Assembly (NCBI GenBank): GCA_965205205.1
Contig: CBDBFX010000002.1
Span: 1,373,506-1,437,505, forward strand
Source of the DNA: Arenicellales bacterium
GTDB taxonomy: Bacteria; Pseudomonadota; Gammaproteobacteria; Arenicellales; JAJDZL01
DNA length: 64,000 nucleotides
Direction: 5' to 3'
Positions 4,081-52,147 of the stretch are shown here, piece by piece (the stretch's first letter is position 1; every line of letters begins with the position of its first letter). Both the position numbers and the translations under genes were made by a program. The notes under the pieces were generated by a model. It was given only the letters and a program-made list of their open reading frames with translations, ran no database searches and had not been told where the DNA came from.

Positions 4081-4086
4081 TAGTTA

Positions 4087-13841: not shown

Positions 13842-13926
13842 CAGGAGTTTCCAGTCCAGCCCCCGTTCGGGTGTATACTGGAGTCCAAGCGGGGCAAGTC
13901 AATGCGTGGACCCGCATGGAGGTGTG

Positions 13927-15234
13927 ATGATAGCCGTGTGGAATGAAGAAAAAGAAAGAGGACTGACGGAGTTCTCGAAGCGTTCCGACAAGGAATATGC
14001 GCTTTATTTCGTGGGACGGCGGGATGTCATTTCGGGCATTGAGGACACGGTCGGCCAGATACGGCGGCTGATGGCCGGCAGGGCGGCGTCGGACCTTGTC
14101 GGTTGCGGTCTGAATCTGTCAGACCAGCGCACCTGGCTGGTTCAGGGTGCGCCGGGGGCGGGCAAGACGGCCCTGCTGAGCCATCTTAGGCGGATCTGGG
14201 AGCGGCGGAAGGACGGGCCGGTATCGGTCAGTTTGGATCCTCTGGATCTGGAAGACGAGTCCGAGCTGACCCATGTCATTGCGAACCGGATCAGGAGCGA
14301 CGGGGGTGAGATTCTCAAACGAGTCCGGACGCGGGAGCTGGCGGGCGGACTGAAGTTCTGGGGCGGTGGATTTGATGTCAGGACTGCCGAGACGGAACGG
14401 CAGGGCGCATTGACGCTCAGAGATCTGTGGCGGCTGTATGACAGGCGGCTGTCGGATGTAATACGGGATCATCTGCCGAAGAAGATCAGGTCTGGGGTGT
14501 CGGCGCTGCGGCCGGTGGTGCTGATGGTGGATGAGGTACAGAAGCTGGGACTTGAAGGTGAGAAGCTACTGCTGCGAATACATCTTGGCGGGCATGGGCT
14601 GCCGATTGTGGCGGTGCTGGCGGGTCTGGCCTGGTCGCAGACGCGTCTGGCGGAGGCGGGGATCTCAAGACTGAGTCAGGGGCATGTGCGGACGTTGCGG
14701 CCGCTGGCCGGGGCCGAGGTGGCCGAGGCGGTGCGTCTACTGCTGGAGAAATATGAGATTGAGGGCTCTGGGGATGCCGCCATTGCGGGGAAGATTGCGG
14801 CGTGGTCTAACGGCTGGCCGCAGCATCTGCACAATTACATGCGCGTGCTGGCGACGGAGCTGAGAGACGGGAAAGGCGACCTTGCCGCAGTGGATGAGAA
14901 CAGGCTTCGTGCAGAAGGGAACCGGATGAGAAAGGACTACTATGCGCGGCGTCTGATCAGTTCCAGCATCACAGCCTGCGTCAACCTGCTGGCCGATGTC
15001 GCCGAAATAATCGGTGAGGGTGGCTGTAGTGAGCCGGAGCTGTTGGACCTGCTTGGTGAACGGGTTTGGAAAGAAAAGCGAAAATCGGCGGACTGCATGC
15101 CAAGAAGTATGGAACCGCAGGAGTTCGTCGGTGAAATGATCCGAGCAGGCATCATCCATAAAGAAAAGCGTCGCATCATCATCCCGATTCCGTCTTTCCG
15201 CCAGCACCTGATTGAAAGCAGACTGAACGACTGA
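13927..15234 (+). CDS. AAA/STAND-like P-loop ATPase (AAA_16 / Arch_ATPase-like), full length
   Basis: FVGRRD motif, Walker A GAPGAGKTALL, Walker B-like VVLMVDEVQKL. I take ATG 13927 (MIAVWNEEKERGL) as the start by homology with the five other copies. The ORF-track extension to 13735 is antisense porin DNA. Confidence 0.75.
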   Translation: MIAVWNEEKERGLTEFSKRSDKEYALYFVGRRDVISGIEDTVGQIRRLMAGRAASDLVGCGLNLSDQRTWLVQGAPGAGKTALLSHLRRIWERRKDGPVSVSLDPLDLEDESELTHVIANRIRSDGGEILKRVRTRELAGGLKFWGGGFDVRTAETERQGALTLRDLWRLYDRRLSDVIRDHLPKKIRSGVSALRPVVLMVDEVQKLGLEGEKLLLRIHLGGHGLPIVAVLAGLAWSQTRLAEAGISRLSQGHVRTLRPLAGAEVAEAVRLLLEKYEIEGSGDAAIAGKIAAWSNGWPQHLHNYMRVLATELRDGKGDLAAVDENRLRAEGNRMRKDYYARRLISSSITACVNLLADVAEIIGEGGCSEPELLDLLGERVWKEKRKSADCMPRSMEPQEFVGEMIRAGIIHKEKRRIIIPIPSFRQHLIESRLND

Positions 15235-15759
15235 CGCTGACTTTCCTGGTGAGCCAGGCATACTGCACGCCATCTTTCTCAAATGTGGCGGTCAGGAATG
15301 GTGCGGCGGGCGAGTCGCAGTGGCGGGTTTTCCACTGACTCGTACATCTTCCATCCTCAAGTCGCTACCGGCAACCGCCCCAGTTTCATGTGAAGCTCAA
15401 TTCCGGGATGCGATGGTGCAGGCGGCCAACGAAAACCGAAACGGCTCCGATGCAACCCTGCTTTCGCACGGCATGCCGAGCGGACGGATGATATTTTAAC
15501 TTCCCGTTTGTGAAAGCTGTTGCAAATATGAACAGCAATTCCCACCGAGGACAGCTTCCGTGGATTCGGCGTGATTTCCGGCTTCAAACGCAGGAGTCGG
15601 GAGGATGCGGGCAAGGTGGACCCTCCGGCGGGTTGCCGGATCGGCGGTTGGCTGCGTATATCCTGAAGAACCGGCCGGTCACACATTCGGTCACGGCGAC
15701 CGCATCAGGACGTGTCGAAGGGCACCAGACCGTGCTCGCAGTATCCGAAGGCGAGGGAC

Positions 15760-16887
15760 TTATACAGCGTCTGCCAGTCCCCGGACGTGGAATCCCAGGA
15801 ACAGCACGCGCAGCTGCTCCCACAGGGCTTTCGAGCCGCCCGCTTCCGCCCGCGCGGCCTGGAACAGCGAGCAGCACCGCTGCTGCACCTGATCGATGAG
15901 AAACGCCAGCATCGTCAGGTGGGCGAACACCGTCGCCAGATGCTGTCGGCCGTGGCCGAAATTGTGTTCAAAGCCGTAGCCTTGGTTCTTCAGGGTGTTG
16001 AAGGTCTCGTTCTCAATGCGCCAGCGGGCCCGGCCCGCCCGCATCAGCTCGTCGGCGTTGGCTGCCGTGACCTCCAGGTCCGTGACCCAGGAGAAATGCA
16101 GCGTCTGACCGTCCGCGCGGGTCTCCCAGCACTCCAGGAAGTTCACCTCCAGGTCGAAGTTCGCCTCATTCAGCGGCACGCCGTTCAGGAAGCGGAAGTG
16201 AAACCGGCTGCCATCCCGGTCCAGCTCCACGGTTCGGGTCGCCGCCGTGACATCGACCCAGTGGAACAGTTCCCCATGGTCGCCCGGCTTCACCCCCAGC
16301 ACATAACGCAGGTTCAGTTCCCGTAGCAGCCGGATGTGCGGACCGTTCGAGGCCAGCGCATCCGGCGCCAGCGGAAACACTTCCCGGTGCTCCGGGTGCA
16401 CCAGCACCGCACCCAGCATCTGGTGGTACCAGGTGGTGCTGCCATCCCGATGATGCTTCTCACAGCAGTGCTCGCAATGCACCTTCTTCGAGGAGAAATG
16501 ACCCGTGCCGTCCACCGACAGCAGATGGTGGTCCAGCCAGGTGAAACCATCCAGACCCTTGCCCCGCTGCAGGGCGGCGAACACCTTCTTGAAGACCCCG
16601 CGCACCGCCCGCGGATCCACCTGGTCCAGACACTCGCGCAGGGCCGTATCCGATGGCGCACGGAGCACCCCGTACAGATTCCTGAGGTTCGACCGCACCC
16701 TGTTCTCGTCCCGCGCATCCTGATCGAAGTTCAACAGCGACGGGTACTTCAGGCTGAACATCGTCAGGGCCGACATCAGACCGTCCGTCTGGCACAGACC
16801 ACGGCTGGCCACGGCGTCCTTGATGCGGTCGAATTCGGCACGCACCAACCGAAGCAGACCCGGTGCGCTGAGGGTCTTGCGAAACAT
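15760..16887 (-). pseudogene. IS-D DDE transposase, internally deleted and 3' frameshifted
   Basis: Motifs HCEHCCEKHHRDGSTTWYHQMLGAVLVHPEHREVFPLAP and RWRIENETFNTLKNQGYGFEHNFGHG. Compared with the relic at 60047..61267 it lacks ~45 aa (EPILRADGARKNDCERNAAKRLL...LVEDAL). A frameshift changes the last ~25 aa. IS4/IS701-like; family not certain. Confidence 0.7.
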
Positions 16888-17002
16888 GGTCTTGGATATG
16901 ATTGATCATCCAGTCGGGTAAAAAACAGCCCTATCATACCACTTTTCAATGAAAAGTCCGCGAACAGTAATTTTTCAGCCCCCCCTGAAACCTCCGTATT
17001 TA

Positions 17003-18830
17003 GTGTCTGCAAGAAAACTCGAAAAAGTGAGATAATTATCTGATATCATGTGAATAATATCGTATAATTGTGAACGAAGAATTGGCCTTTTGCCCTGAAA
17101 AAGGGGCGATTTCAGCCGATTCGCCGACTTTTCACCCAATCTTCGCCAGGCAGACAGGCAATGAGAAACATCATCAACCCGAATCACGAACTGGGCGGCA
17201 TTGACATCACGGCCATTGAGATCGACCACCACTCGAGAGACGACATGCCGGCGGTGCTGCTGGGCCTGCAGACGCTGTATCGCGACCCGCAGGTGAGAGA
17301 GCGGCTGTTCGCGCTGCTGGAGACGGAGGCGCTGCCGGGGGTGGACCTGAACAACGGTCGCCCGGGCATGGCGCTGTGGCCGGGACTGGTGATGGCGGTG
17401 GTCAAGCAGGCGTTGAACTGCGATTTCGATCGCCTGCATGATCAGGTGCGAAACCATGTGGACCTGCAGCGGATGATGGGTCATGGTTCATTGATGAAGC
17501 CGCCGTACACGCTGCAGCAGGTGGTGGACAATGTGAATCTGTTCAGTGCGGAACTGCTGGACAAGGTGTCGGCGCTGGTGGTGGAGGCGGCGCACCGGCG
17601 TGCGGGTCATCAGCCGGGCGAGGCGTTGAAAGGACGCTGCGATTCATTCGTGGCGCAGACGGACGTGCATTATCCGACCGACACCGGGCTGCTGAATGAT
17701 GCGGCGCGCCGGCTGCTGGGTCTGATGCATCAGGCGCAGGCGTGTCATCAGGTGTCCGGGTGGCGGCAGTACCGACATCTGCAGCGAAAGCTGCGCGGTC
17801 TGTACAACGGCATCCGCCAGGCGAAGCAGGCGAAGGCGGACCCGGCGGCTTTGAAAGAATATCTGAGTTGGTGCGACGGGGTGGTGTCACGGGTCTGCGA
17901 GACGCGGGATCAGCTGATGCGGCAGGGGGTGTCGGGTGCGCTGCTGGACGAGGTGGTCACGTTCCTCGGCTACGCCGAGAAGCTGTCGGCTCAGGTGGTG
18001 CGGCGATTGCTGCGCGGCGAGCAGATTGTGCACTCGGAGAAGATCTTTTCGGTGTTCGAGCCGCACACTCGGTGGATCGTCAAGGGCAAAGCGGGGGTGG
18101 CGGTGGAGTTGGGGGTGCCGGTGTGCATCGTCGAAGATCAGCATCAGCTGATCCTGTGTCAGAAGGTGATGTGGGAGGGCGGTGATGTGGACCATGCGGT
18201 GCCGGTGATCAAGGAGACGCTGCGGCGTCATCCGCAGTTGGAGAAGTGCAGTTTCGACCGCGGCTTTCACAGTCCGGCGGTGCAGCGGCAGTTGCAGGAG
18301 CTGCTGACTTACTGCGTGCTGCCGGTCAAGGGACGGCGCTCGCAGGCGGTGCGGGAGCGGGAGGGGCAGGCGTGGTTCCGCGAGGCGCGTCGTCAGCATC
18401 CGGCGGTGGAGTCGGCGATCAACAGTCTGCGGCATCGGGGTCTGGTGCGGGTGCGCAGTCATGGTGCGGCGGGCTTTGCGCGCACGGTGGCGCGGTCGGT
18501 GCTGGCTTACAACGTGCATCGGTATGGGGTGATGGTGCGCGACGAGTTGCGGGAGCGGGAGCGGCGGAAGCGGGCCGCCTGACGGCGGCGGTTGGTCAAA
18601 AGGGGTGTTGAACCGGTCCCGCCAGGGGACTGGATGGAGACCTATGGGCCGAATTCGGCATTCGCCGCCCGACTGACGAAAAAAGCGTGCCAATCGGCGC
18701 AAAACGGCCGAATGTTCAGAAATCTTCTCTCCCCGAACCCTCAGCCATCCATTTTCTTCTCGTTTCGAGGCTTCATAAAATCAACATCGCCGGACATTTC
18801 ATGCGAAAATGGGGGTTTTCTGGCAGACAC
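17003..18830 (+). mobile_element. IS-C copy 2 (1828 bp)
   Basis: Same termini as copy 1. 6-bp TSD TATTTA (16997-17002 and 18831-18836). Lies inside IS-D copy 1. Confidence 0.9.
17161..18582 (+). CDS. DDE transposase of IS-C (473 aa)
   Basis: Full-length paralogue of 2495..3922. Confidence 0.75.
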   Translation: MRNIINPNHELGGIDITAIEIDHHSRDDMPAVLLGLQTLYRDPQVRERLFALLETEALPGVDLNNGRPGMALWPGLVMAVVKQALNCDFDRLHDQVRNHVDLQRMMGHGSLMKPPYTLQQVVDNVNLFSAELLDKVSALVVEAAHRRAGHQPGEALKGRCDSFVAQTDVHYPTDTGLLNDAARRLLGLMHQAQACHQVSGWRQYRHLQRKLRGLYNGIRQAKQAKADPAALKEYLSWCDGVVSRVCETRDQLMRQGVSGALLDEVVTFLGYAEKLSAQVVRRLLRGEQIVHSEKIFSVFEPHTRWIVKGKAGVAVELGVPVCIVEDQHQLILCQKVMWEGGDVDHAVPVIKETLRRHPQLEKCSFDRGFHSPAVQRQLQELLTYCVLPVKGRRSQAVREREGQAWFREARRQHPAVESAINSLRHRGLVRVRSHGAAGFARTVARSVLAYNVHRYGVMVRDELRERERRKRAA

Positions 18831-18866: not shown

Positions 18867-19824
18867 TGCACAGATCGTCGGCCGCATCAAGGCTACGGTC
18901 CTCGATGCGGGTGCCGGTCTTGAGCACCCGGAAGTACTCCTCAATGCTCCAGCGGACTTGATACCAACCTTGGATGCGCCGCGCCCACGCGGCCGTGGCC
19001 TCGCCCTCGGAACACAGCAGCAGCCAGTGCAGCGGCGGGCGGCCTCGTCCGGCGTCGTCGCGTCGCTAACCCGCACCGTCATCCCCTGATGACCCTCCAG
19101 TACATCGGCCGAACTGACCCGGGCATTGGACAGCAGCCGATAGGCCTCCCGCTGACCCGCCTCGTCTGGAAAAATCTCCGACACCGGCGACCGCGGCCGC
19201 TGCTGCCAGCACCGACACATCTCGATCAGCCGCTGCCGCAGACGACCATCCGACAGACCGTTCCCACCTAACTCCCGAGTCGCCCACCGCCGCGCGCACC
19301 GCCCCCACCGGCAACGCCTACAGCGCCGCCCGCCAACCCGCCACCAGCGGCTTCACCCACACCGCTCGACTCAACCCCTCGCCACCACTCGGCGGGCGAC
19401 CCGACGTCTGCCCCACAGACGACCACCCCGCCGCCACAAAACCGATGCCACCCAGCACCCCATGACGTTCGCTGTGGATCAGCCAGCACACCTGTTTGTC
19501 CGGCTACCGCGGCTCCCCCTCCGGATTATGCCAAGCCATCATCGCCCGAAACTGCCGCCCAGCCTGCTCATCGGCCACCAGCACCAGGGGCACCGCCCCC
19601 AAATCCGCCAGCGTCCCCGATACGTATACCGCCGCCGGCTCCGGCAACCCGGCCGTCGAACGCACCGGCTCCGGTCGCGCAGCTGCGACGTCAACTGCGT
19701 GCGCGTGGTCCCGCCACCTGCCGGAACTAGTCCACCGTCTCCCGATCATATTGTCGCATGCCGATTTGAATGCCACATAATTTAGCAGATTATTGTCTTC
19801 GTGTTAAGAGTGTCGAAGTGACAG
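18867..19824 (-). mobile_element. relic of an IS-A-like element with multiple internal deletions
   Basis: Patchy homology to IS-A on the minus strand (WSIEEYF region, YRLLSNARVSSADVLE, DUF4338 pieces). Terminus is the reverse complement of CTGTCACTTCGACACTCTTAACACGAAG, ending at 19824. Near-duplicate of 58400..58800. Confidence 0.75.
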
Positions 19825-20070
19825 GTCCCGGACCGCTCTGCTTTCGAATGCCGCACCCTTCCCGTCTCTGACCCCTGCTTTAATGACTCTCCAATCGCTT
19901 TCCAATGGCTCAAAATGGAGACAGCGAAATTGCCTCAGCATATAATGAGGTCCACAAACAATAAAATTTTGACTTGATCACGCAACGTTAAATGTCTCGA
20001 TTTGATTATTACAGAAGCAGGGGTGGAAGGATTGAATGATGTCTCAAACAGTCACCAGTCGGTCGTTGGC

Positions 20071-20640
20071 ATGAATACCGCGACATTTGATACATACGCG
20101 GCCGCGAGTGAGCTGCAGGCGCACGGCTTCACCGAAGACCAGGCTGTTGCGACTGTTTCAATGGTTCGCAGCGCCATGAACGAAAGCGTCGCTACGAAAG
20201 CTGATATTGCACAGCTTGAAAGTAGCATGAAGGCTGACTACGCGCAGCTTGAAAGTAGCATGAAGGCTGACTACGCGCAGCTTGAAAGTAGCATGAAGGC
20301 TGATATTGCACAGCTTGAAAGTAGCATGAAGGCTGATATTGCACAGCTTGAAAGTAGCATGAAGGCTGACTACGCGCAGCTCGAAAGTCACATTCAGACG
20401 TACAGTGCGCAGCTGGAAAGTCGGATGGAGACTCTGGAAAGTCGGATGAAGGCTGACAATGCACAGCTTAAAAGTGACATGAAGGCTGACAGTGCTCGTC
20501 TTGAATATCGGATGGAGACTCTGGAAAATCGGATGAAGGCTGACAATGCTGAGCTTGATAGCCGCTCGACCAAACGGTTGTACGTTGCTGCATTTGGTAT
20601 CGTCGCAATCACAGTTGGATTGCTGAAGCTCCTTGACTGA
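20071..20640 (+). CDS. DUF1640-like tail-anchored coiled-coil protein with 11-aa tandem repeats (copy 1)
   Basis: N-terminus MNTATFDTYAAASELQAHGFTEDQAVA matches the DUF1640 pattern. Six ADI/YAQLESSMK repeats. C-terminal TM segment LYVAAFGIVAITVGLLKLL. Start at ATG 20071 is preferred over the track's TTG at 20002. Confidence 0.65.
   Translation: MNTATFDTYAAASELQAHGFTEDQAVATVSMVRSAMNESVATKADIAQLESSMKADYAQLESSMKADYAQLESSMKADIAQLESSMKADIAQLESSMKADYAQLESHIQTYSAQLESRMETLESRMKADNAQLKSDMKADSARLEYRMETLENRMKADNAELDSRSTKRLYVAAFGIVAITVGLLKLLD
20200..20397 (+). repeat. 6 x 33-bp in-frame tandem repeat
   Basis: GCTGA(T/C)(A/T)(T/A)(T/C)GC(A/G)CAGCTTGAAAGTAGCATGAAG repeated head to tail. The paralogue at 59176..59406 has 7 units. 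Confidence 0.9.
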
Positions 20641-21069: not shown

Positions 21070-21243
21070 CAGGGCAATTCAAAAGTCAGAAGGGACCAAT
21101 CCTACCGCGATTCAGAGTGTCACAGGAGCCGTTGTCGACCGGTTCGCCGTCTGATACAAAAAATCGCGTCCAGCTCTGGACAAACAAAAGTCAATCTGAG
21201 ATAATGGGCGCCGTCATGAGATCTGAAGACGAGAACGGGGCGG

Positions 21244-22870
21244 ATGGATCTGCGCGCCATTGAGGTGCGGCCGGTGTGCACGCCGGCCGAGCGTCGGCGC
21301 TGGGACGAGCTGGTCGCCCGCCATCACTATCTGCCTTACCAGGGGCTGTTCGGGCGCGCCCTGCGCCATGTGGCGGTGCTGGGTGAGACTTGGCTGGCGC
21401 TGGTGGGCTGGCAGGGCGGAGCCTTCAAGGTTGGCGTGCGCGACCGCTGGGTCGGCTGGACGCGCGACCAGCAGTATGCGCGCCTGCATCTGTTGGCCCA
21501 CAATGCGCGGTACGTGGTGCTGCCGGCGGCACGGTCGAAGAATCTGGCCTCGCGCGGGTGCTGAGTCTGCGGCGGCTGTGCGATGACATGCAGGAGATAC
21601 ACGGGTATCCGGTCTGGCTGGCCGAGACGTTCGTCGATCCGTCGCGTTTCGCCGGCACCTGCTACCGGGCTTCGAACTGGCACTCGCTCGGCCGGACGCG
21701 GGGCTATGGACGGGTGCCGGGGGCGACGCCAAACTGGCATTACCATGGTCAACCGAAGGAGGTTTATGTGTATTCACTGACAGACGACTGTCGAGATCAG
21801 CTGTGTGGCACGGCGGTGCCTGGATCGGGACGGTTCGAACGGCCGGCCGCTGATGAGTGGCCGTCAACTGAGGAGCTGGAAAGCCTGCACGACCATCTGT
21901 CGGGCATGGAGGATTTCCGCCACGCCCGCGGGCAGCGCTACCCGTTGCCCTGTCTGGTCACGCTGATGGTGGCGGCCCGCTTGGCGGGCTACCGCGGCAT
22001 CACCGCGTTCGGTCAGTATGCGGCCCTGCTGTCGCAGGAACAGCTGGCGGCGGTGGGCGCTTTCTGGAGTCCGAGCAAGGCGCGCTACACCGCCCCGGTC
22101 ACCTCGACGTTCCACTAAATATTGGCGCAGATGCCGCCCAAGTTCCTGGATGAAGCGGTCAATGCATGGGTGCAGGCGAACAGTTCGGCCGACGGGGCGA
22201 CGGCCATTGACGGCAAGGTGGTGCGTGGCGCGGCCAAGGCGCGCGGGAAAGCGCGTTGCACGCTGGTGGCGGCGCTGGAGCATGGCACGGGTCTGGTGTT
22301 GGGACAGACCGAGGTGGCGGAGGGAAGCAATGAGATTCCGGCGGTGAAGGAGAATCAGGCGACGATGCGGGCGGACCTGCAGTCCATTGACTGGACCAAG
22401 GCGGAACGGTTCGAGCAGGACGTGGAACTGGGACATGGTCGTCTGGAGCATCGCCGCTGTGAGGTGGTTGACCTGAGCAGTGCCGAATGGGACGGGTACT
22501 GTGCGCTGCACGGCCGCCGCCAGGCGTTTCGCATCGAACGGTGCCGCGAGCTCATCAAGCGTGGGACCGTCGAACGGGAGACCGTCTATGGTCTGACTTC
22601 GCTGCCGGCCGAACAGGCCGGGCGCAACGGATCGCCACCCTGGTGCGGGGACACTGGGAGATCGAGAACCGGCTACACGACACCCGGGACTTCAGTTATG
22701 ACGAGGACCGTTGCCGGGCGCATGTGCGCAACGTGCCGCGCAACCTCGCCACCCTGAGCAACACGGCCATCTCCCTGATCCGTCTGGACTACCGGTTCGA
22801 TTACATCCCGCAGGCGCACCGCCATTTCGCCGCCCGCCCCGATGAGGCGCTTGATGCGGTCTTGAAGTGA
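21244..22870 (+). pseudogene. ISAs1-family transposase with DUF4338-like N-domain; frameshifts and a stop
   Basis: Spread over four ORFs (21244..21564, 21390..22118, 22122..22757, 22487..22870). N-part: RDRWVGW..RLHLLAHNARYVVLP..KNLASRVL..ETFVDPSRFAGTCYRASNW. C-part ISAs1 hallmarks: DFRHARGQRYPL, AIDGKVVRG, GHWEIENRLHDTRDFSYDEDRCR. Confidence 0.8.
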
Positions 22871-22985
22871 CCGCATCATAGCCACCGACCTAAGCGACGG
22901 CCACACGCACCGAGGGGGTGCGAGGGGCCGCTCTGTCTGCAGAACGCCCGCAGGGGTGCCTTCACACCGCCGCACCGGCGCGGAC

Positions 22986-25595
22986 CTGTCAACAAACCAC
23001 ACTTAACACGAAGAAAATAATTTGCTAAATTATGTGGCATGCAAATCGGCATGCGACAATATGACAAAGAGACGGTAGCTTGGTTCCGGCAGGCGGTGGT
23101 CGGGGGCGAGACCTCGCGGACGCAGTTGGCGTCGCAGCTGTGTGAACGGCTGGACTGGCGCAATGCGAAGGGCGAGCTGTGTGAGGCGTCGGCCCGAAAG
23201 GTGCTGCCGACGCTGGCGTTGCGGCTGGACGTCAAGCTGCCGGCGCCGGTGCGGCCGGCACCGTTGCGTTCGGCGGCCGGGTTGCCAGCGCCGCCGGTGG
23301 TCTGCGTGTCGGGGTCGCTGGCGGATTTGGGGGCGGTGACTTTGGTGCCGGTGGTCGATGAGGCAACCAGCGTGCCGTTTCGGGCGCTGATGGCCTGGCA
23401 TCATCCGGAGGGGGAGCCGCGGCATCCGGGCAAGCAGCTGTGCTGGCTGATTCACAGCGAACGTCATGGGGTGTTGGGTGGCATCGGATTTGTGGCGGCG
23501 GGGTGGCATCAGCAGGCGCGCGACCGGTTCATCGGCTGGGGTGCGCGGGCGCGGGTGGCGAACCTTCATCAGGTGGTGAACCATCATCGTTTTTTACTGT
23601 TGCCAGGGGTGCGGGTGGCGAATCTGGCGTCGCATGTGCTGGGTCAGGCGGTGGCGGCGTTGCCGGCGGCCTGGTGGCGGCGTCATCGGGAGACGGTGGT
23701 GCTGACGTATACGTATGTGGGCCCGGCGCATGCGGGGACCTGTTATCGGGCGGCGGGATGGTCGTGTGCCGGACAGACGTCGGGTCGCTCGCCGAGTGGT
23801 GGCGAGGGGGTGCGGCGGACGGTGTGGATGAGGCCGCTGGTGGCGGGGTGGCAGGCGACGCTGCAGGCGGCGCCGGTGCGGACGTTGCCGGTGGGTCCGG
23901 CGCGGCATGCGGCGGGCGACTGGGCGACCCGGGAGTTCGGTGGGAACGGTCTGACGGATGGTCGTCTGCGGCAGCGTCTGATCGAGATGGGTCGGTGCTG
24001 GCAGCAGCGGCCGGGGGCGCCAGTGGCGGAGATTTTTCCGGAACCGGCGGATCAGCGGGCGGCCTATCGGCTGCTGTCCAATGCCCGGGTCAGTTCGGCC
24101 GATGTGCTGGAGAGTCATCAGGCGATGACGGTGCAGCGGGTGGGCGAGGCGGACGGGACGGTGCTGGTGGTGCAGGACACCACGGTGCTGAACTACCAGA
24201 CGCTGCGCGACTCGACCGCCGGTCTGGTGGCGATTGGTGGCGGCGGTTCGGGCAGTGTGGGGGTGGTGGCCCATGTGCTGCTGGTGCTGACGCAGACGGG
24301 TCAGCCGTTGGGGGTGTTGGATGTGGAAGCGGATTTTCGGGCGCCGGGGCCAAAGACCGCGCGGCGGGCGGCGGCCGGCGCCAAGAAGGAAAGTGGTCGG
24401 TGGCTGCGCGGCTTCGAGCGCACGGCGGAGCTGGGGCGGGCCGATGGCGACAGGCGGGTGGTGACGGTGGGCGACCGCGAGGCGGACCTGTGGGCGCTGT
24501 ATGCGCGCCAGGCGGTGGAACCGACCGCCGGTCTGTTGGTGCGGGTGGCCGCGGGGAATCGGCGGCGGGTGCAGGTCGGCGATGAGACGCCACTGCTGGA
24601 AGACTACCTGGCCTCACTGGCGCCGTGCGCCACGACCGAGGTGGCGGTTCAGGCCCGTGGCGGGGCGCACGCCCGCGGCCATCGGACCGTGTCGGTGAAC
24701 CTACAGATCGCGCGGGTGCGCGTGTGTGCGCCGCGCGGCGAGCAGCCGTCCCACCTGACGCTGACGGCGGTGCGGGTGAGCGACGCGGCACCGGAAGACG
24801 GCCGCCCGCCGCTGCACTGGCTGCTGCTGTGTTCCGAAGGCGAGGCCACGGCCGAGTGGGCGCAACGCATCCAAGGTTGGTATCAGCGCCGCTGGAGCAT
24901 TGAGGAGTACTTTCGGGTGCTCAAGACTGGCACCCGCATCGAGGATCGGCAGCTTGATGCGGCCGAAGACCTGTGCAAGTGTCTGTGCTTCGATGCCATT
25001 GCCGCCTGGCAGGTGTTCGCCCTGCAGCGGGCCGCCCGCCATCAGCCGGAGTGCCCGGCCGAGCAGTTCGTCACCGGCGAGCAGATCGAGGTGCTCTATG
25101 CCTGTCTGCGCCGGGTGCGCATCCGACATCCGCGCGGCCCGCCCAAGGGCGCGCTTGACATCCGCACCTTTGTCATTGATGCGGCCCGCTTCGCCGGCTT
25201 CCGACCGTCGCGTCGGCAACCGCTGCCGGGGGCACAGAAACTGTGGAGCGGTCTGCGCTATCTGCAGTGGGCCCTGCTCGGCTATCAGGCCGCCGTTGAA
25301 GACGAGTCCCGGCCGCGTCGAAGACGACCGAGCCGGCGTTCTTGACGCCGGCCGCGCGGCCGGCACCAACCGGCCGCCAACCGCTCTCGGTCCGACCGGC
25401 CGAGACGGCCGCGCGGGCCGAAAACCCCCTCATCCGACCCGGCGCACCACCCGCGGCACCCGCCACCGACTCCCCACGGCCCGCACCGTCCCCTCACCGC
25501 CAAGCCACTACGAAAAACAGACCTGAAAGGGCCGATCCCTTGCCTTCCGATTGCAAAGGCGCGACATCACTGTGTTACGTGTGACTTCGTGACAG
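22986..25595 (+). mobile_element. IS-A copy 2 (2610 bp)
   Basis: CTGTCAACAAACCACACTT at 22986 and the reverse complement of CTGTCACGAAGTCACACG ending at 25595. 9-bp TSD GGCGCGGAC (22977-22985 and 25596-25604). Confidence 0.9.
23039..25345 (+). CDS. IS-A transposase (768 aa): DUF4338-like N-domain + Tn5-type DDE domain
   Basis: Intact. Differs from copy 3 at only two positions that I can see (CEA/CES and VRP/VRS). Confidence 0.85.
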   Translation: MQIGMRQYDKETVAWFRQAVVGGETSRTQLASQLCERLDWRNAKGELCEASARKVLPTLALRLDVKLPAPVRPAPLRSAAGLPAPPVVCVSGSLADLGAVTLVPVVDEATSVPFRALMAWHHPEGEPRHPGKQLCWLIHSERHGVLGGIGFVAAGWHQQARDRFIGWGARARVANLHQVVNHHRFLLLPGVRVANLASHVLGQAVAALPAAWWRRHRETVVLTYTYVGPAHAGTCYRAAGWSCAGQTSGRSPSGGEGVRRTVWMRPLVAGWQATLQAAPVRTLPVGPARHAAGDWATREFGGNGLTDGRLRQRLIEMGRCWQQRPGAPVAEIFPEPADQRAAYRLLSNARVSSADVLESHQAMTVQRVGEADGTVLVVQDTTVLNYQTLRDSTAGLVAIGGGGSGSVGVVAHVLLVLTQTGQPLGVLDVEADFRAPGPKTARRAAAGAKKESGRWLRGFERTAELGRADGDRRVVTVGDREADLWALYARQAVEPTAGLLVRVAAGNRRRVQVGDETPLLEDYLASLAPCATTEVAVQARGGAHARGHRTVSVNLQIARVRVCAPRGEQPSHLTLTAVRVSDAAPEDGRPPLHWLLLCSEGEATAEWAQRIQGWYQRRWSIEEYFRVLKTGTRIEDRQLDAAEDLCKCLCFDAIAAWQVFALQRAARHQPECPAEQFVTGEQIEVLYACLRRVRIRHPRGPPKGALDIRTFVIDAARFAGFRPSRRQPLPGAQKLWSGLRYLQWALLGYQAAVEDESRPRRRRPSRRS

Positions 25596-25806
25596 GGCGC
25601 GGACGCCGCCGACCGCAGGGTTGAGGCACCGAAACCGTGCAAAACTCACCGCAGACGGCGTCTGCTCTCAGCCTGGTCCCTGCCATCGGCATTCGATCGC
25701 CTTCCAAACTGTCCGCTATCAACCCATGACCCTAGGCTGACTTACGACTTTTGAATTGTCCTGGATGGCCTATCAACCTTGTTTGCGATTAATGGAAGGA
25801 GTGATA

Positions 25807-27099: not shown

Positions 27100-27245
27100 C
27101 CGATGATGGATCGGACGCGCCTGCAGATCAATCGTTTTCAGACAGCGGAACGCTTACTCCAGACGGGCCAGGCTCTTGTAGGCGCCGCACGGCGGCACTC
27201 GCCTCCAGTCTGGATTCGGACACCGAGGTGCGAACCACATAGATA

Positions 27246-29079
27246 GTGTCTGCAAGAAAACTCGAAAAAGTGAGATAATTATCTGATATCATGTGAATAA
27301 TATCGTATAATTGTGAACGAAGAATTGGCCTTTTGCCCTGAAAAAGGGGCGATTTCAGCCGATTCGCCGACTTTTCACCCAATCTTCGCCAGGCAGACAA
27401 GCAATGAGAGACATCATCAACCCGAATCTCGAACTGGGTGGCGTCGACATCATGGCCATTGAGATCGACCACCACTCGAGAGACGACATGCCGGCGGTGC
27501 TGCTGGGCCTGCAGGCGCTGTACAGTGACCCGCAGGTGAGAAAGCGGCTGTTCGCGCGGCTGGAGACGGAGGCGCTGCCGGGGGTGGATCTGAACAACGG
27601 CCGCCCGGGCATGGCGCTGTGGTCGGGACTGGTGATGGCGATGGTCAAGCAGGCGTTGAACTGCGATTTTGATCGTTTGCATGATCTGGTGGCCAACCAT
27701 AATAAACTGCAGCTGATGCTGGGTCATGGTACATGGATGGAGCCGCCGTACACGCTGCAGCAGGTGATCGACAACGTAAATCTGTTCCGCGCGGAACTGC
27801 TGGACAAGGTGTCGGCGCTGGTGGTGGAGGCGGCGCACCGGCGAGCGGGTCATCAGCCGGGCGAGGCGTTGAAAGGACGCTGCGATTCATTCGTGGCGCA
27901 GACGGACGTGCATTATCCGACCGACACCGGGCTGCTGAATGATGCGGCGCGCCGGCTGCTGGGTCTGATGCATCAGGCGCAGGCGTGTCATCAGGTGTCC
28001 GGGTGGCGGCAGTACCGACATCTGCAGCGAAAGCTGCGCGGTCTGTACAACGGCATCCGCCAGGCGAAGCAGGCGAAGGCGGACCCGGCGGCTTTGAAAG
28101 AATATCTGAGTTGGTGCGACGGGGTGGTGTCACGGGTCTGCGAGACGCGGGATCAGCTGATGCGGCAGGGGGTGTCGGGTGCGCTGCTGGACGAGGTGGT
28201 CACGTTCCTCGGCTACGCCGAGAAGCTGTCGGGTCAGGTGGTGCGGCGGCTGCAGCGCGGCGAGCAGATTCCGCACTCGGAGAAGATCTTTTCGGTGTTC
28301 GAGCCGCACACTCGGTGGATCGTCAAGGGCAAAGCGGGGGTGGCGGTGGAGTTGGGGGTGCCGGTGTGCATCGTCGAAGATCAGCATCAGCTGATCCTGT
28401 GTCAGAAGGTGATGTGGGAGGGCAGTGATGTGGACCATGCGGTGCCGGTGATCAAGGAGACGCTGCGGCGTCATCCGGATCTGAACCGATGCAGTTTCGA
28501 CCGCGGCTTTCACAGTCCGGCGGTGCAGCGGCAGTTGCAGGAGCTGCTGACTTACTGCGTGCTGCCGGTCAAGGGACGGCGTTCGCAGGCGGTGCGGGAG
28601 CGGGAGGAGCAGGCGTGGTTCCGCGAGTCGCGTCGTCAGCATCCGGCGGTGGAGTCGGCGATCAACAGTCTGCGGCATCGGGGTCTGGTGCGGGTGCGCA
28701 GTCATGGTGCGGCGGGCTTTGCGCGCACGGTGGCGCTGTCGGTGCTGGCTTACAACGTGCATCGGTATGGGGTGATGGTGCGCGACGAGTTGCGGGCGCG
28801 GGAGCGGCGGAAGCTGAAGCGGGCCGCCTGACGGCGGCGGTTGGCCAAAAGGGGTGTTGAACCGGTCCCGCCAGGGGACTGGATGGAGTCCTATGGGCCG
28901 AATTCGGCATTCGCCGCCCGACTGACGAAAAAAGCGTGCCAATCGGCGCAAAACGACCGAATGTTCAGAAATCTTCTCGCCCCGAACCCTCAGCCATCCA
29001 TTTTCTTCTCGATTCGAGGCTTCAGAAAATCAACATCGCCGGACATTTCATGCGAAAATGGGGGTTTTCTGGCAGACAC
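27246..29079 (+). mobile_element. IS-C copy 3 (1834 bp)
   Basis: Same termini. 6-bp TSD TAGATA (27240-27245 and 29080-29085). Inserted between LDGI and YVVRTS of the IS1634-B relic. Confidence 0.9.
27404..28831 (+). CDS. DDE transposase of IS-C (475 aa)
   Basis: Full-length paralogue. Confidence 0.75.
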   Translation: MRDIINPNLELGGVDIMAIEIDHHSRDDMPAVLLGLQALYSDPQVRKRLFARLETEALPGVDLNNGRPGMALWSGLVMAMVKQALNCDFDRLHDLVANHNKLQLMLGHGTWMEPPYTLQQVIDNVNLFRAELLDKVSALVVEAAHRRAGHQPGEALKGRCDSFVAQTDVHYPTDTGLLNDAARRLLGLMHQAQACHQVSGWRQYRHLQRKLRGLYNGIRQAKQAKADPAALKEYLSWCDGVVSRVCETRDQLMRQGVSGALLDEVVTFLGYAEKLSGQVVRRLQRGEQIPHSEKIFSVFEPHTRWIVKGKAGVAVELGVPVCIVEDQHQLILCQKVMWEGSDVDHAVPVIKETLRRHPDLNRCSFDRGFHSPAVQRQLQELLTYCVLPVKGRRSQAVREREEQAWFRESRRQHPAVESAINSLRHRGLVRVRSHGAAGFARTVALSVLAYNVHRYGVMVRDELRARERRKLKRAA

Positions 29080-29420: not shown

Positions 29421-29525
29421 GATGCATCGGGTCAGTTGCATCGACTGCATTGACCGGCACAAAGCGACCGTCGAAACCTGACTGCGGTTCTGGTTTTCTC
29501 AGGCCTGCTGGCGGCCCCGGCCGCG

Positions 29526-30893
29526 GTGTTCGCGGAAGCGTCCTGGTACGGCTCGCTGCGCGGCGGCGTCCTGCTCGACAAGGGCAAAGATGCCAGGTTC
29601 TACGACGGCTACTCGCGCTGGGGCATCAAAGGCTCGAACGAGATATCGGAAGGGCTGTCCGCAGTCTACCGCTTCGAGCACAAGTTCAGCACCGAGGACG
29701 CCGGCCAGGCCGGCGGCCGGCTGGCCTACGTGGGCCTGTCCGGTGGTTTTGGCTCGCTGACGCTGGGACAGATCTGGAGCGCCAGCTACAACCACGCCGG
29801 CGTCATCCGCGACATCGGCAATTATTACAGCAGTGGCGACACCAGTGGCCGGATCGGCAACACCCTGTCCTACGCCTATTCGAACGACGCCTTCAGCGTG
29901 CAGTTCGACGCCATCATGGACGGTAAGAAGGACTCCGGCAACGCCATCGATCAGTGGGAACTCGGGGCGACGGTGAACATCGGCGATATCGGCAAAGTCG
30001 CCTTCGCCCATGTGAAGAAGGAAGACGTCAAAACGGGCAATAAAATGGTGAGGGTGACCAAGTGGTCCGGCGGCGGCCAGTGGCTCTACAGCCCGAAACT
30101 ATGGTCGAAAAACGCGGAAAGCACCTGGTCCATCAGTAAAAAAGGAACGGACAACACTCTAACTGCTGGTACTGGCGAGTTTCAGGAAGAATTTGAAAAA
30201 GGAAAGGAGATGAGAGTCGTTGTTCAACCAATAACCGTTTATGTCAAGCTGCCAAACACCAATTATGACGCGGATAAAAAACAATTGAAAGATGCGGTGG
30301 CGGGTACCCTTCATGGCCATCCCAGTTTTCAACGAATCACAGGAAGTGGTGGTGATTCGAATGTCAAACTTAATCCCAAGGTTTCTTTTCGGTATGGTGC
30401 TGCGTGTGATCCCACCACCCCACCAAGAGACGAGACTAAATGTGTAAAGACTACCGCCTATCAGGCTGAATTGAAACATAATGCAATAGTCGACAACGGC
30501 GTATTCTTTTTCGCTCCCGGTCATGTTGAGGATGAGATGGACTATGGCGAGAAGTCAAGCCACGTGTCGGCATCGTTTGACCTCGGTGCGGTGACCCTGG
30601 GTCTGGGCCATTCGACGACGAAGTTCATGGATCCGATGAAGACGAAGAAGGCGAAGACGAACTACATCGGCGTCAACGGTGCCATTGGCGACACCGGGCT
30701 GGACTGGCGGGCCTGGTATCGGACCAAGGAGGAGGTGAAGGACAACAACATGACGGTGAAGTCGAAGCCCTGGGGCATCGGTTTGGGCAAGAAACTCGGC
30801 GGTGGCGCTTTGGCCTATGTCGAGCATTGGAACGATGGCGCGAAAGGCGCAAAGAAATCCGGCACGGTGGTCGGCCTGCGCGTCGATTTCTAG
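29526..30893 (+). CDS. porin P2 (general bacterial porin type, type-I central insert); start unresolved
   Basis: EASWYGSLRGGV...RWGIKGSNEISEGL...YVGL.GGFG.LTLGQ N-block and C-terminal ...GGGALAYVEHWNDG...TVVGLRVDF (terminal F). Track coordinates use GTG 29526. The signal-peptide codons (LTAVLVFSGLLAAPAAVFA) lie in frame upstream, behind a TGA at 29451-29453. Confidence 0.75.
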   Translation: MFAEASWYGSLRGGVLLDKGKDARFYDGYSRWGIKGSNEISEGLSAVYRFEHKFSTEDAGQAGGRLAYVGLSGGFGSLTLGQIWSASYNHAGVIRDIGNYYSSGDTSGRIGNTLSYAYSNDAFSVQFDAIMDGKKDSGNAIDQWELGATVNIGDIGKVAFAHVKKEDVKTGNKMVRVTKWSGGGQWLYSPKLWSKNAESTWSISKKGTDNTLTAGTGEFQEEFEKGKEMRVVVQPITVYVKLPNTNYDADKKQLKDAVAGTLHGHPSFQRITGSGGDSNVKLNPKVSFRYGAACDPTTPPRDETKCVKTTAYQAELKHNAIVDNGVFFFAPGHVEDEMDYGEKSSHVSASFDLGAVTLGLGHSTTKFMDPMKTKKAKTNYIGVNGAIGDTGLDWRAWYRTKEEVKDNNMTVKSKPWGIGLGKKLGGGALAYVEHWNDGAKGAKKSGTVVGLRVDF

Positions 30894-30922
30894 CGACCGG
30901 CTCTTTCACATTGGGAGAATGG

Positions 30923-31198: not shown

Positions 31199-31976
31199 CT
31201 AGAAACTCACGCCCAGTCCGACCACCGTGCCACTGGATTTCTTTGCTCCTTTCACACCGTCATTCCAATGCTCGACATAAGCCCAGGCGCCACCGCCCAG
31301 ATCCTTGCCCAACCCGATGCCCCAGGGCTTCGTCTTCGTGCCGTCGGCATGCTCCTTGGTCCGATACCAGGCCCGCCAGTCCAGCCCGGTGTCGTCAATG
31401 CCACCGTTAACGCCGATGTAATTCGTCTTCGTCTTCATGGCTCCCGCCTTGTTCGACTTCATCGTCGAATGACCCAGTCCCAAGGTGACCGCACCGATTT
31501 CAAACGATGCCGATATGTGATTCGACTTGCTGCCCGGCTCGCTGATAACTCTTTTGGTGACTGATTGCGTGCTGGCCGGTGTCAAGACTTGACTCGGCAA
31601 ATAGTAGAACGCCTGTATCTCGTCACTAACCTTTTTTGCGCCGGCCGATGTTCCCCCTGGAGTTTCGGTCGTGCCGAAATGTGCATAGGCGTCTATTTTC
31701 ACACACGCATCGGAAATACCATCATCAGTGTTTTTTTTGTCTATACATTCATATTTACCACTAGCCTTTTCGGTCTCAATAACGAACCAATAACTGTCGG
31801 GGTCGCCAACGGGATGATTGCCTTTACGAAGGGCCGTTATTTGAAGGTTGTATAGAGTGATTTGCTGAGTGTCCTTGCTGAGATCTGGAGCGTCAAAAGC
31901 CCCGCCTTTCTTCACATAGACCTTGATTTTCTTGACCTCTCTGAATTCAACAGCACCGGTGTTAGCAACAACTAGA
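31199..31976 (-). pseudogene. porin P3, 3' part (type-II central insert + C-block)
   Basis: ...ITALRKGNHPVGDPDSYWF...SKSNHISASFEIGAVTLGLGHST...AYVEHWNDG...VVGLGVSF. Separated from its 5' part by IS-C copy 4. Confidence 0.85.
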
Positions 31977-33476
31977 TAATTAGTGTCTGCAAGAAAACTC
32001 GAAAAAGTGAGATAATTATCTGATATCATGTGAATAATATCGTATAATTGTGAACGAAGAATTGGCCTTTTGCCCTGAAAAAGGGGCGATTTCAGCCGAT
32101 TCGCCGACTTTTCACCCAATCTTCGCCAGGCAGACAGGCAATGAGAAACATCATCAACCCGAATCACGAACTGGGCGGCATTGACATCACGGCCATTGAG
32201 ATCGACCACCACTCGAGAGACGACATGCCGGCGGTGCTGCTGGGCCTGCAGACGCTGTATCGCGACCCGCAGGTGAGAGAGCGGCTGTTCGCGCGGCTGG
32301 AGACGGAGGCGCTGCCGGGGGTGGACCTGAACAACGGTCGCCCGGGCATGGCGCTGTGGCCGGGACTGGTGATGGCGGTGGTCAAGCAGGCGTTGAACTG
32401 CGATTTCGATCGCCTGCATGATCAGGTGCGAAACCATGTGGACCTGCAGCGGATGATGGGTCATGGTTCATTGATGAAGCCGCCGTACACGCTGCAGCAG
32501 GTGGTGGACAATGTGAATCTGTTCAGTGCGGAACTGCTGGACAAGGTGTCGGCGCTGGTGGTGGAGGCGGCGCACCGGCGTGCGGGTCATCAGCCGGGCG
32601 AGGCGTTGAAAGGACGCTGCGATTCATTCGTGGCGCAGACGGACGTGCATTATCCGACCGACACCTCACAAGGGCCCACACTTGATTCTCAGAACATAAT
32701 GTGATAAAACAGGGCCTACCATGAAAGTAGGCCTGCATCAGTTTCACGCCCAGACCATCGACTGGTTTCAGAAGGCGGTGTCGACGCCGGGTGTGTCGCG
32801 CAACGCCCTGGCCCGCGGGCTGTGCGAGCGCGACGAGTGGACCGGTCCGACGGGTGAGTTGTGTGTGGCGGCGGCCCGCAAGGCGCTGCCGGTGCTGGCT
32901 GGGCGGCTGGGCGTGGCATTGCCGGCGCCGCACCCGGCATTCGGTTCGGGCGGCCGTGAGGCGCCGCCTGAGGCGGCTTATCCGGACCGCGCGCTGCGTG
33001 GCCCGCTGTCAGCGCTGGGTGAGGTGACGGTCGAGCCGGTGTCGGGCGATGAGGAACGGCGGCTGTGGGAGTCGATGATGCGCACGCATCATCCGCAGGG
33101 CTGGGCTCAGGCGCCGGGTGGCCAGCTGCGCTACTGGGTGTGTTCTTCGCGCTACGGTCGTCTGGGCGGGCTGAACTTCTGTGCGGCGAGCTGGCACCAG
33201 CAGGTGCGCGATGCGTTCATCGGCTGGTCGGGTGAGGCGCGGGTGTCGAATCTGAGTCGGGTGCTGAACAACCAGCGGCTGCTGATTCTGCCGGGGGTGC
33301 GGGTTCACGGTCTGGCCTCTCGGGTGCTGGAGCTGGCGTGTGCGCAGGTGGTTGAGGACTGGGAGGCGAAATACAATGTACGACCGGTGCTGGCGTACAC
33401 GTATGTGGCGCCCGAGCATCCGGGGACCAGCTACCGGGCGGCGGGTTGGCAGTGCGGTGCGGGCGGCACCTCGGGT

Positions 33477-50701: not shown

Positions 50702-50842
50702 GATGCATCAGATCAACTGTATTCACCGGCGCAAAGCGACCGTCAAAACCTGACTGCGGTTCTGGTTTTCTCAGGCCTGCTGGCGGCGCCGGCCGCGGTT
50801 TTCGCGGAGGCGTCCTGGTACGGCTCGCTGCGCGGCGGCGTC

Positions 50843-52120: not shown

Positions 52121-52147
52121 AGATTGACTTTCAGTCGATGAGAATGG

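Follow-up and report, generated by a model that had tools for sequence, protein, structure and literature searches.

Insertion sequences of the window

The window analysed here is a stretch of 64,000 nucleotides from an Arenicellales bacterium (GenBank assembly GCA_965205205.1, contig CBDBFX010000002.1, positions 1,373,506 to 1,437,505 of the forward strand). It contains three copies of a complete IS50/Tn5-type insertion sequence (IS) of 2611 bp, named IS-A, two copies of a second complete IS50/Tn5-type element of 2350 bp, named IS-B, one nested inside the other, and the remnant of an ISAs1-type transposase gene. All three transposases begin with a module of the Pfam family PF14236 (DruA, formerly DUF4338), which in IS-A and IS-B comprises ~290 extra N-terminal residues that form a small helical domain resembling a helix-turn-helix (HTH) and a GNAT fold. 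An earlier description, hereafter the sequence-only reading, had regarded the module as portable between unrelated transposition machineries and had offered target choice, DNA binding or a GNAT-like activity as its role. The principal features are listed below with their strands (aa, amino acids; ORF, open reading frame).

22976-22984 and 25596-25604: exact 9-bp duplication GGCGCGGAC of IS-A copy 2
22985-25595 (+): IS-A copy 2, 2611 bp, with ends CTGTCAACAAACCACACTT ... GTGACAG
23003-23031 (+): promoter-like site (TTAACA, 17 nt, TAAATT, with TG) in the left end of IS-A copy 2
23039-25345 (+): IS-A transposase ORF, 768 aa (HTH-like domain, GNAT domain of the DruA/DUF4338 family, complete Tn5-type transposase)
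23039-23233 (+): IS-A HTH-like helical N-terminal domain, aa 1-65 (helices at 10-21, 27-38 and 49-62)
23324-23848 (+): IS-A Mom-like GNAT domain, aa 96-270 (PF14236 match at aa 111-246)
23888-25297 (+): IS-A complete Tn5-type transposase part, aa 284-753, aligned with aa 5-471 of the Tn5 transposase
6722-9331 (-): IS-A copy 1, 2610 bp, duplication ACCCACATC; ORF 6791-9277, 828 aa
55417-58027 (+): IS-A copy 3, duplication GCCCCCGGC; ORF 55470-57776, 768 aa; inside an older IS-B-like relic
33477-35826 (-): IS-B inner copy, 2350 bp, duplication ACCCGAGGT; ORF 33500-35770, 756 aa
34901-35770 (-): N-module of the IS-B inner copy (Pfam DruA match 35090-35458)
32665-33476 (+): left part of the IS-B outer copy, N-terminal 258 aa (ORF 32721-33497), interrupted by the inner copy
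35836-37373 (+): right part of the IS-B outer copy, remaining transposase (ORF 35812-37350)
32656-32664 and 37374-37382: duplication GACCGACAC of the IS-B outer copy
21238-22870, approximately (+): ISAs1-type transposase pseudogene, with the GNAT (DruA) part at ~21244-21750, then PF13808 and a decayed DDE domain

The IS-A copies are mutually 99.35% identical, have the same boundaries (CTGTCAAC at the left, GTGACAG at the right) and are each flanked by their own, different, exact 9-bp duplication; the IS-B copies, whose left end begins CTCACAAGGGCCCACACTT, are 99.9-100% identical and also have exact 9-bp duplications. Both elements possess 19-bp inverted repeats and an intact DDE/YREK motif. 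The recent activity that the sequence-only reading had proposed is borne out by these near-identical copies and exact duplications: IS-A and IS-B are two active IS families of the window. The ISAs1-like gene is dead. Set against intact homologues, its reading frame shifts near 21555-21561, runs into an in-frame stop at 22116-22118 and changes once more, and the gene has also suffered an internal deletion. It is a decayed pseudogene, and no convincing inverted repeats or duplications were found around it. Its intact relatives have all domains.

The promoter-like site of IS-A copy 2 is sigma-70-like. It extends across the inner edge of the left inverted repeat to a point 8 nt upstream of the ATG, so that the transposase mRNA of IS-A would be almost leaderless; copies 1 and 3 have TTGACA in place of TTAACA. 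A TTGA.. box is present at the equivalent position in IS-B and in Rhodobacterales relatives. In IS-A copy 1, a 1-nt deletion near 7043-7047 has shifted the frame and thereby lengthened the transposase ORF from 768 to 828 aa. The lengthened ORF enters the ~250-bp non-coding right end, a segment that related elements lack. Neither subterminal repeats nor binding-site arrays were found within IS-A, including this right end.

The IS-B copies form part of a three-level nest (31977-38269), in which IS-B lies in IS-B and both lie in a third IS that encodes a 475-aa DDE_Tnp_1 transposase; each level where this was checked has its own exact 9-bp duplication. Further copies of the third IS are located at 2449-4082, 17001-18571 and 27244-28877.

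Identity of the N-terminal modules and their partners

The sequence-only reading had recognised one DUF4338 signature in the three N-termini, and PF14236 (gathering threshold 27 bits) matches all three above threshold: aa 111-246 of the IS-A transposase (63.9 bits, E 1.7e-17), aa 105-227 of the IS-B transposase encoded at 33500-35770 on the minus strand (76.4 bits, E 2.8e-21) and the ISAs1-like ORF 21244-21564 on the plus strand (59.7 bits, E 3.4e-16), where the match resumes past the frameshift in 21390-22118 (25.4 bits). The same profile matches 56 of 56 aligned homologues. The mutual homology that had been proposed as a check is evident from BLASTP, with 49% identity over 294 aa between the IS-A and IS-B modules (E 5e-87), 35% over 161 aa between those of IS-A and the ISAs1-like gene (E 2e-16) and 29% over 192 aa between those of IS-B and the ISAs1-like gene (E 2e-15).

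The partners were also named correctly, as two Tn5/IS50-type DDE domains and one ISAs1-type domain. The NCBIfam model NF033590, "IS4 family transposase", scores 267.8 bits with IS-A and 272.3 bits with IS-B (cutoff 160). Residues 284-753 of IS-A align end to end with residues 5-471 of the Tn5 transposase (E 3e-29); this part of the protein includes the end-binding domain PF14706 (aa 294-351), the catalytic residues D380, D479 and E622, and the YREK motif (Y615, R618, E622, K629), and the QDTT, GDREAD and Y-x2-R-x3-E-x6-K motifs are conserved in the alignment. The ISAs1-like gene matches PF13808 (34.0 bits, cutoff 32.3) and, in two fragments, NF033564 (62.2 and 47.8 bits), scores that fall under the cutoff of 70 because the gene is broken.

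Two statements about these partners have to be narrowed. The "three different transposases" represent two partner families only, IS-A and IS-B being paralogues in one IS50-type clade; their proteins are 48% identical over the full length. To call the machineries unrelated is too strong: they belong to distinct IS families with different DNA-binding domains (PF14706 versus PF13808), but all three transposases match the Pfam DDE family PF01609, weakly and below threshold.

The label DruA-like holds at the level of the Pfam family but not beyond it. The PADLOC models for Druantia DruA (PDLC00001/2) match weakly, with E-values on the order of 1e-3 to 1e-2 (13-16 bits, E 9e-4 to 9e-3), over a core of ~50 residues only, and no other Druantia gene (druB to druE, the last encoding a very large helicase) is present in the window. 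On these two grounds, the link to Druantia consists of membership in one broad Pfam family only. The largest ORF of the window encodes a 973-aa glycine dehydrogenase (GcvP), and the N-modules sit within insertion sequences bounded by inverted repeats and duplications.

Predicted structure of the add-on

An AlphaFold model of IS-A residues 1-290, built on 56 homologues with a predicted local distance difference test score (pLDDT) of 92.5, consists of a three-helix HTH-like domain (1-65), a poorly conserved linker, an alpha/beta domain (90-270) and a second linker that runs into the Tn5 DNA-binding domain. The top 50 PDB matches listed for this model all have the GNAT fold (101 matches at E<=1e-3; TM-scores of 0.4-0.66, normalised by the length of single-domain targets), and its neighbours include the nucleic-acid-modifying TmcA, NAT10 and phage Mu Mom. 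DUF4338 is called a GNAT domain in the only published statement found (PMC10853773); with the confident model and the GNAT neighbours in the PDB, this favours the suggestion of a GNAT-like fold in the sequence-only reading. Searching PDB sequences with the module profile returned nothing meaningful, and the PDB copy searched contains no DUF4338 structure.

In the HTH-like domain of IS-A, R27, W40 and G45 are invariant; in the GNAT domain, H122, R161, D162, W167, R184, A197 and S198 are invariant and Y236 is nearly so. The acyl-CoA pyrophosphate loop, (Q/R)xxGx(G/A) in acyltransferases of this fold, reads R192-V-A-N195-L-A197 in IS-A, and its central Gly position is G, N or H depending on the clade. 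The full-length IS-A model (pLDDT 86.9, predicted TM-score or pTM 0.78) retrieves Tn5 transposases first (TM-score 0.78-0.80 by target length, E 1e-27) and then GNATs.

The ISAs1-like module does not have the first ~95 residues (the HTH-like domain) of the IS-A and IS-B modules. Across the family, the HTH-like domain is present in the Tn5-fused and standalone forms and absent from the ISAs1-fused form; the GNAT core is preceded by ~94-101 residues in the former two and by only ~9 in the latter, so the ISAs1-fused module is the GNAT domain alone.

Breadth of the fused family

The full-length IS-A query matches 198 protein clusters at E<=1e-3, and the best 120 of these are mostly 740-790 aa long with the architecture of IS-A and 41-56% identity to it; some of the fused relatives are named "IS4 family transposase" by NCBI. 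Scanning one genome per GTDB species revealed at least 505 loci that encode relatives. In the best 80 of them essentially the whole protein is covered, and these 80 lie in metagenome-assembled genomes (MAGs) of Rhodobacterales, other Alphaproteobacteria, Arenicellales, Thermodesulfobacteriota, Candidatus Poriferihabitaceae, Bryobacterales and Vicinamibacterales. Relatives span Alpha- and Gammaproteobacteria, Thermodesulfobacteriota and Acidobacteriota, often with many copies per genome. Clean ends could be defined in 53 of the 80 loci (2331-2743 bp, 19-bp inverted repeats CT.TCA...CAC..TT), all with 9-bp duplications, of which 50 are exact and three have a single mismatch.

The idea that the fusions merely reflect errors of assembly or gene calling, or a chance juxtaposition within a single genome, is refuted. 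It is true that frameshifted or interrupted fused genes account for some "standalone" or 500-aa database proteins, but hundreds of intact ORFs of 740-790 aa occur in independent assemblies and phyla, the window itself has three intact copies of IS-A, and many intact variants of IS-B are found in the source genome.

One Rhodobacterales MAG (CBDCUM01) harbours at least 18 near-identical copies of one family member (L013-L029, L074). In the same MAG, the mismatched left and right flanks of one of these copies (L022) suggest recombination between copies, and at two genomic places (L001 and L002; 6459-9475) an identical unit occurs in which the fused gene is split at residue ~485 by an insert of ~3 kb that encodes a 724-aa large serine recombinase. 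A cluster of fused transposases at 90% identity (P0300) has members from Acidimicrobiia, Candidatus Palauibacter and Boseongicola, a mixture that suggests recent transfer between phyla, possibly in a shared habitat.

In the plasmid collection, 631 records match the Tn5 part, none covers >=80% of the query, and the N-module is covered by none of the 25 matches listed; a standalone homologue used as the query retrieved two Candidatus Thiodictyon megaplasmids only. On plasmid pTs485 of Candidatus Thiodictyon syntrophicum (L104), a fused element lies in a DUF2235 gene and has been split by an integrase/IS91 insertion, and consequently RefSeq lists a "DUF4338 domain-containing protein" and an "IS4 family transposase" separately. 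The fusion is thus visible in public annotation, yet no paper that describes it was found in the searchable literature (ISfinder was outside the scope).

The module itself is carried by 4085 representatives at 50% identity in an HMMER search, and the ISAs1-fused lineage, with the GNAT part only, is as widespread as the Tn5-fused clade. The ISAs1-like query matches 1461 proteins at E<=1e-3; most of the 120 matches listed have PF14236 together with PF13808, the longest of those listed being 440-510 aa, and an intact 444-aa relative (WP_216644545.1) bears the RefSeq name "ISAs1 family transposase". On six independent contigs there is a further arrangement, in which a 308-aa HTH-GNAT gene lies just upstream of a gene for a 511-aa ISAs1-type transposase without a GNAT domain of its own, with an overlap of 11 nt. 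This two-gene arrangement is a third link of the module to transposons. A slippery frameshift site was considered and rejected: the ORFs merely overlap (the ATG lies within ...GGATGAAGAATAA), an arrangement that points to coupled translation of two proteins, not to a fused one.

Conservation and co-divergence of module and transposase

In a set of 42 diverse Tn5-fused proteins, pairwise identity averages 0.58 in the GNAT domain, 0.52 in the HTH-like domain, 0.63 in the Tn5 end-binding domain, 0.55 in the catalytic core, 0.47 in the C-terminal domain and 0.35-0.40 in the linkers. Nine residues (H122, R161, D162, W167, R184, A197, S198, G233 and Y236) are kept in >=96% of 286 sequences of all three architectures; H122, R184, S198 and Y236 are kept in 98-100% of 140 Tn5-fused sequences, in which the RD..GW motif is also retained. 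As this conservation shows, the add-on is an integral and selected part of the Tn5-fused protein.

Distances between modules are closely correlated with those between transposases in the Tn5-fused clade (Mantel r 0.94, a value reached by 0 of 2000 permutations), and a neighbour-joining tree of GNAT cores unites the ISAs1-fused modules in a single clade in 300 of 300 bootstraps; distances in this tree were capped on account of saturation, and the topology of the ISAs1 clade is the same without capping. The high correlation and the single ISAs1-fused clade indicate a few old fusion events followed by co-evolution, rather than frequent shuffling. The word "portable" is therefore apt insofar as the module occurs with two transposase families, but not in the sense of free shuffling between them.

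Relation to phage Mu Mom

Mom of phage Mu is a GNAT protein and an anti-restriction enzyme that binds DNA and uses Gly-tRNA to modify DNA adenine at N6; H58, Y59, R111, S124, D149, R151 and Y159 are its key residues, an HTH-like insertion (residues 175-209) is essential for its activity, and the activity requires a dimer (PMC13219725). Within the Pfam-A and PHROGs libraries, Mom is the family with an annotated function that lies nearest to the modules. In a Pfam scan at relaxed threshold, 25 of the 56 aligned homologues matched Mom, all below threshold (best E 4.9e-4), and no other GNAT family turned up; the five Mom scores shown among ten standalone homologues scanned are 12-14 bits. In PHROGs, phrog_1384 ("Mom-like DNA modification protein") is the top match for eight of nine proteins, with E-values of 9.7e-5 for IS-A, 1.5e-3 for the ISAs1-like protein and 6e-7 for a standalone homologue.

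Profile-profile alignment by hhalign against a Mom profile made from Mu Mom and nine phage homologues gave a probability of 91.6% for the module (E 8e-7, 158 columns), 95.9% for the standalone class (97.2% in global mode; E 5e-9 to 1e-10) and 71.7% for the ISAs1-fused class, and at most 1.2% for a control with the Mom alignment reversed. In these alignments, H58 of Mom corresponds to the invariant H122, S124 to the invariant A197-S198 at the start of helix 3 (with a register of ±1 between alignments) and Y159 to Y236 of the CYRAAGW motif, and the three equivalents are conserved in >=97% of sequences of every class. At the position of Y59, ISAs1-fused modules have Tyr and Tn5-fused ones Pro. 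The FVDPxR motif, which contains the equivalents of D149 and R151, is found in the ISAs1-fused forms (D in 43 of 43, R in 39 of 43) and the standalone forms (D or E in 88 of 103, R in 69 of 103); at this position IS-A has YVGPAH and IS-B has YVAPEH. Taken together, the comparisons point to the GNAT domain of the DUF4338/DruA family being a distant homologue of Mom.

Target sites

A total of 57 duplications (52 loci plus five in the window) were compared; 49 of the 57 have a purine at position 1, and likewise 49 have a pyrimidine at position 9 (p 3e-8). The pattern is a palindromic RYYCNGRRY with no fixed site, and the other positions reflect the composition of the genome (AT-rich in Thermodesulfobacteriota, GC-rich in Rhodobacterales). 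It resembles the target consensus of Tn5, GNTYWRANC.

The sequence-only reading had listed target choice among the possible roles of the module. It might be argued that the HTH-GNAT module picks the insertion target by sequence or DNA structure, given that it brings an additional domain of DNA-binding appearance, that one Rhodobacterales family (in MAG CBDCUM01) has a strong palindromic duplication consensus, GCCCGGGGC, and that elements of the window have often inserted into other IS copies. However, across 57 sites in many genomes there is only the symmetric purine...pyrimidine bias of the Tn5 type, no motif is common to the flanks, and the ISAs1-fused form has no HTH-like domain. Because the bias of the duplications is Tn5-like and palindromic, a target-selecting role is not supported, is already weakly refuted, and must be considered very improbable.

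Role of the module

IS-A and IS-B transpose with the canonical hallmarks of Tn5: the DDE/YREK motifs, 19-bp repeats, 9-bp duplications and palindromic target bias of their clade. The interpretation preferred here, to which about even chances are given, is that they represent an active IS50/Tn5-type clade whose Mom-related HTH-GNAT add-on is a nucleic-acid-directed accessory module. At the complex of transposase and DNA, the add-on would offer a Mom-like pocket in which to bind DNA or else an acyl or aminoacyl donor; it might modify a base, and it would control when, or on which DNA molecule, the transposase acts, without choosing the target sequence. Such a role is suggested by the HTH-like domain, the conserved His/Arg/Ser/Tyr pocket, the co-evolution with the transposase and the recurrence of the module with two transposase families and as a co-translated partner.

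Several observations weigh against this interpretation. The connection to Mom is weakest in the Tn5-fused class itself (hhalign 48.7%, E 1.8e-4), the scores with the Pfam Mom family (PF25680) lie under its 27.1-bit threshold, as for a remote relationship, and the structural search ranks Mom no higher than ordinary acetyltransferases. R111 of Mom is probably the invariant R184, an assignment derived from strand spacing and not from hhalign. The equivalent of D149 in the Tn5-fused proteins is Gly in 82 of 140 and Asp or Glu in only 23 of 140, and the Arg that should follow is deleted in 126 of 140. The HTH-like insertion of Mom is absent from the module, appearing as a gap in the global hhalign alignment. 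No experiment on any DUF4338 protein was found in the literature that mentions the family.

With two catalytic equivalents of Mom lost in the Tn5-fused clade, the chemistry may be altered or the module may only bind. Alternatively, the Tn5-fused GNAT could be catalytically dead and serve a structural, oligomerising or autoinhibitory purpose, for example by holding the Tn5 DNA-binding domain until synapsis or by providing dimer contacts. The loss of the D149 and R151 equivalents in most members would be explained in this way, as would the replacement of the central Gly in the pyrophosphate loop of IS-A; the pTM of 0.78 for the 768-aa model suggests that the module packs onto the body of the transposase, and Mom, which must be dimeric to be active (PMC13219725), dimerises as many GNATs do. 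Nevertheless, a scaffold alone could hardly account for the retention of H122, R184, S198 and Y236 in 98-100% of 140 sequences, and the GNAT domain is conserved as much as the catalytic core. A dead GNAT is accordingly rated somewhat unlikely.

Another alternative is that the module is cargo, a DNA- or RNA-modifying or toxin-like GNAT deployed in conflicts and fused to the transposase merely for co-expression; it might mask DNA from a defence system or act with toxin-antitoxin genes. PF14236 proteins occur in Druantia type I and fused to DndF, as PMC10853773 describes, Mom is an anti-restriction enzyme, and the genuinely standalone homologues adjoin toxin-antitoxin pairs. Specifically, at three loci (L011, 5001-6867; L107, 359-2013; L108) standalone HTH-GNAT genes of 300-314 aa are situated directly upstream of such pairs, RelE/MqsA-like in one case and ParD/ParE in two. 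Yet the module is placed N-terminal to the DNA-binding domain in a single ORF, and its divergence parallels that of its partner transposase (r 0.94). It also recurs, both in two transposase families and in the form of an upstream gene with coupled translation, and a chromosomal IS gains little by modifying DNA against restriction. These points make the cargo explanation quite improbable.

The accessory-module interpretation can be extended to a bolder proposal, which is improbable to nearly the same degree: that DUF4338/DruA domains are enzymes of the Mom type and mark a DNA base with an acyl or aminoacyl group, for which a charged tRNA or acyl-CoA is the donor. If so, these insertion sequences would carry a DNA-marking activity on the transposase itself. 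By tagging the element ends or the donor DNA, this activity could gate transposition much as Dam methylation controls IS10 and IS50, except that the element would encode it; DruA would then be the missing writer of a "self" mark in Druantia type I, the counterpart of the DruM methylase of type II.

Relics and other features of the window

Older relics of IS-A and IS-B in the window (18867-19812, 54458-55416, 58028-58788) have about 80-90% identity to the intact elements.

18867-19812 (-): fragmented IS-A-like relic, 82-90% identical to IS-A
54458-55416 (-), resuming at 58028-58370: IS-B-like relic, ~90% identical to IS-B, split by IS-A copy 3
up to 58788: IS-A-like fragments beyond the IS-B-like relic

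In two paralogous CCDC90-like coiled-coil proteins, an 11-residue repeat (SSMKADxAQLE) is encoded by 33-nt tandem repeats at 20163-20561 and 59106-59570; the paralogues are situated within larger duplicated segments (19671-19970 versus 58647-58946). A large inverted duplication (13536-16341 versus 60474-63153, 92-98% identical) contains AAA_22/NACHT-like ATPases (499 and 616 aa) and an unannotated gene pair (375 and 433 aa). Diverged paralogues or fragments of a Gram-negative porin (Porin_4) are located at 29440-30900, 31199-32464, 50700-52190, 52559-54020 and 62558-63354, one of which is continuous with the left end of a third-IS copy.

Significance

Tn5 encodes the best-understood bacterial transposase and is a major laboratory tool; here, a large natural clade of Tn5-type elements has a conserved, possibly enzymatic, domain placed in front of the transposase. 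Database labels of its members go no further than "IS4 family transposase" or "DUF4338 domain-containing protein". For DUF4338, the kinship with Mom yields a concrete and testable hypothesis, namely nucleic-acid acylation. DUF4338 is the least understood component of Druantia type I, and transposons with a phenotype that can be scored offer a tractable route to it. The Tn5-fused clade is highly expanded, and apparently exchanged between phyla, in uncultured bacteria; host names such as Candidatus Poriferihabitaceae suggest marine sponge symbionts, so the clade may be relevant to the genome plasticity of these presumed symbionts.

Comparison with known systems

The module and DruA of Druantia type I have in common the family PF14236, to which DruA gives its current name; they differ in that the window has no DruB-E genes and that the PADLOC models match marginally. 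To our knowledge, DruA has no known function. Among DndF-like defence proteins, a GNAT (DUF4338) domain of the same family is also an N-terminal addition to a DNA-acting protein, but the partner is a P-loop kinase-like defence protein and not a transposase, and transposase fusions go unmentioned in the available part of that source (PMC10853773).

Phage Mu Mom (PF25680), a tRNA-dependent DNA adenine aminoacyltransferase, has the GNAT fold in common with the module, with homology at the profile-profile level and similar motifs: HH(Y/P), (N)xxS at the start of helix 3, FxD and G..Y(R/Q)A..(W/F)..G.T. In place of the insertion of Mom, the module has an N-terminal HTH-like domain, and it has in addition an invariant RD.(F/W)IGW motif.

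The third gene resembles the ISAs1 family in PF13808 and in its ISAs1-type DDE domain (NF033564), and differs in the addition of an N-terminal GNAT (PF14236) without the HTH-like domain.

Elements of the IS50 subgroup have 5'-CT ends with the consensus CW------Y---CA-A--W-, 8-9-bp duplications and sizes of 1350-1550 bp (PMC2266710). IS-A and IS-B begin with 5'-CT and have CA at positions 13-14, A at 16 and T at 19, with a misfit at position 9 only, and they have the end-binding domain PF14706, the DDE triad and the YREK motif in common with IS50/Tn5. The symmetric purine...pyrimidine target bias of Tn5 is likewise found in their clade. In contrast, the fused proteins are only ~24-31% identical to Tn5 and to the canonical plasmid-borne IS4-family transposases, the elements of the IS-A/IS-B clade measure 2.33-2.74 kb instead of 1.35-1.55 kb, and their transposases possess ~290 additional N-terminal residues that form the HTH-like and GNAT domains.

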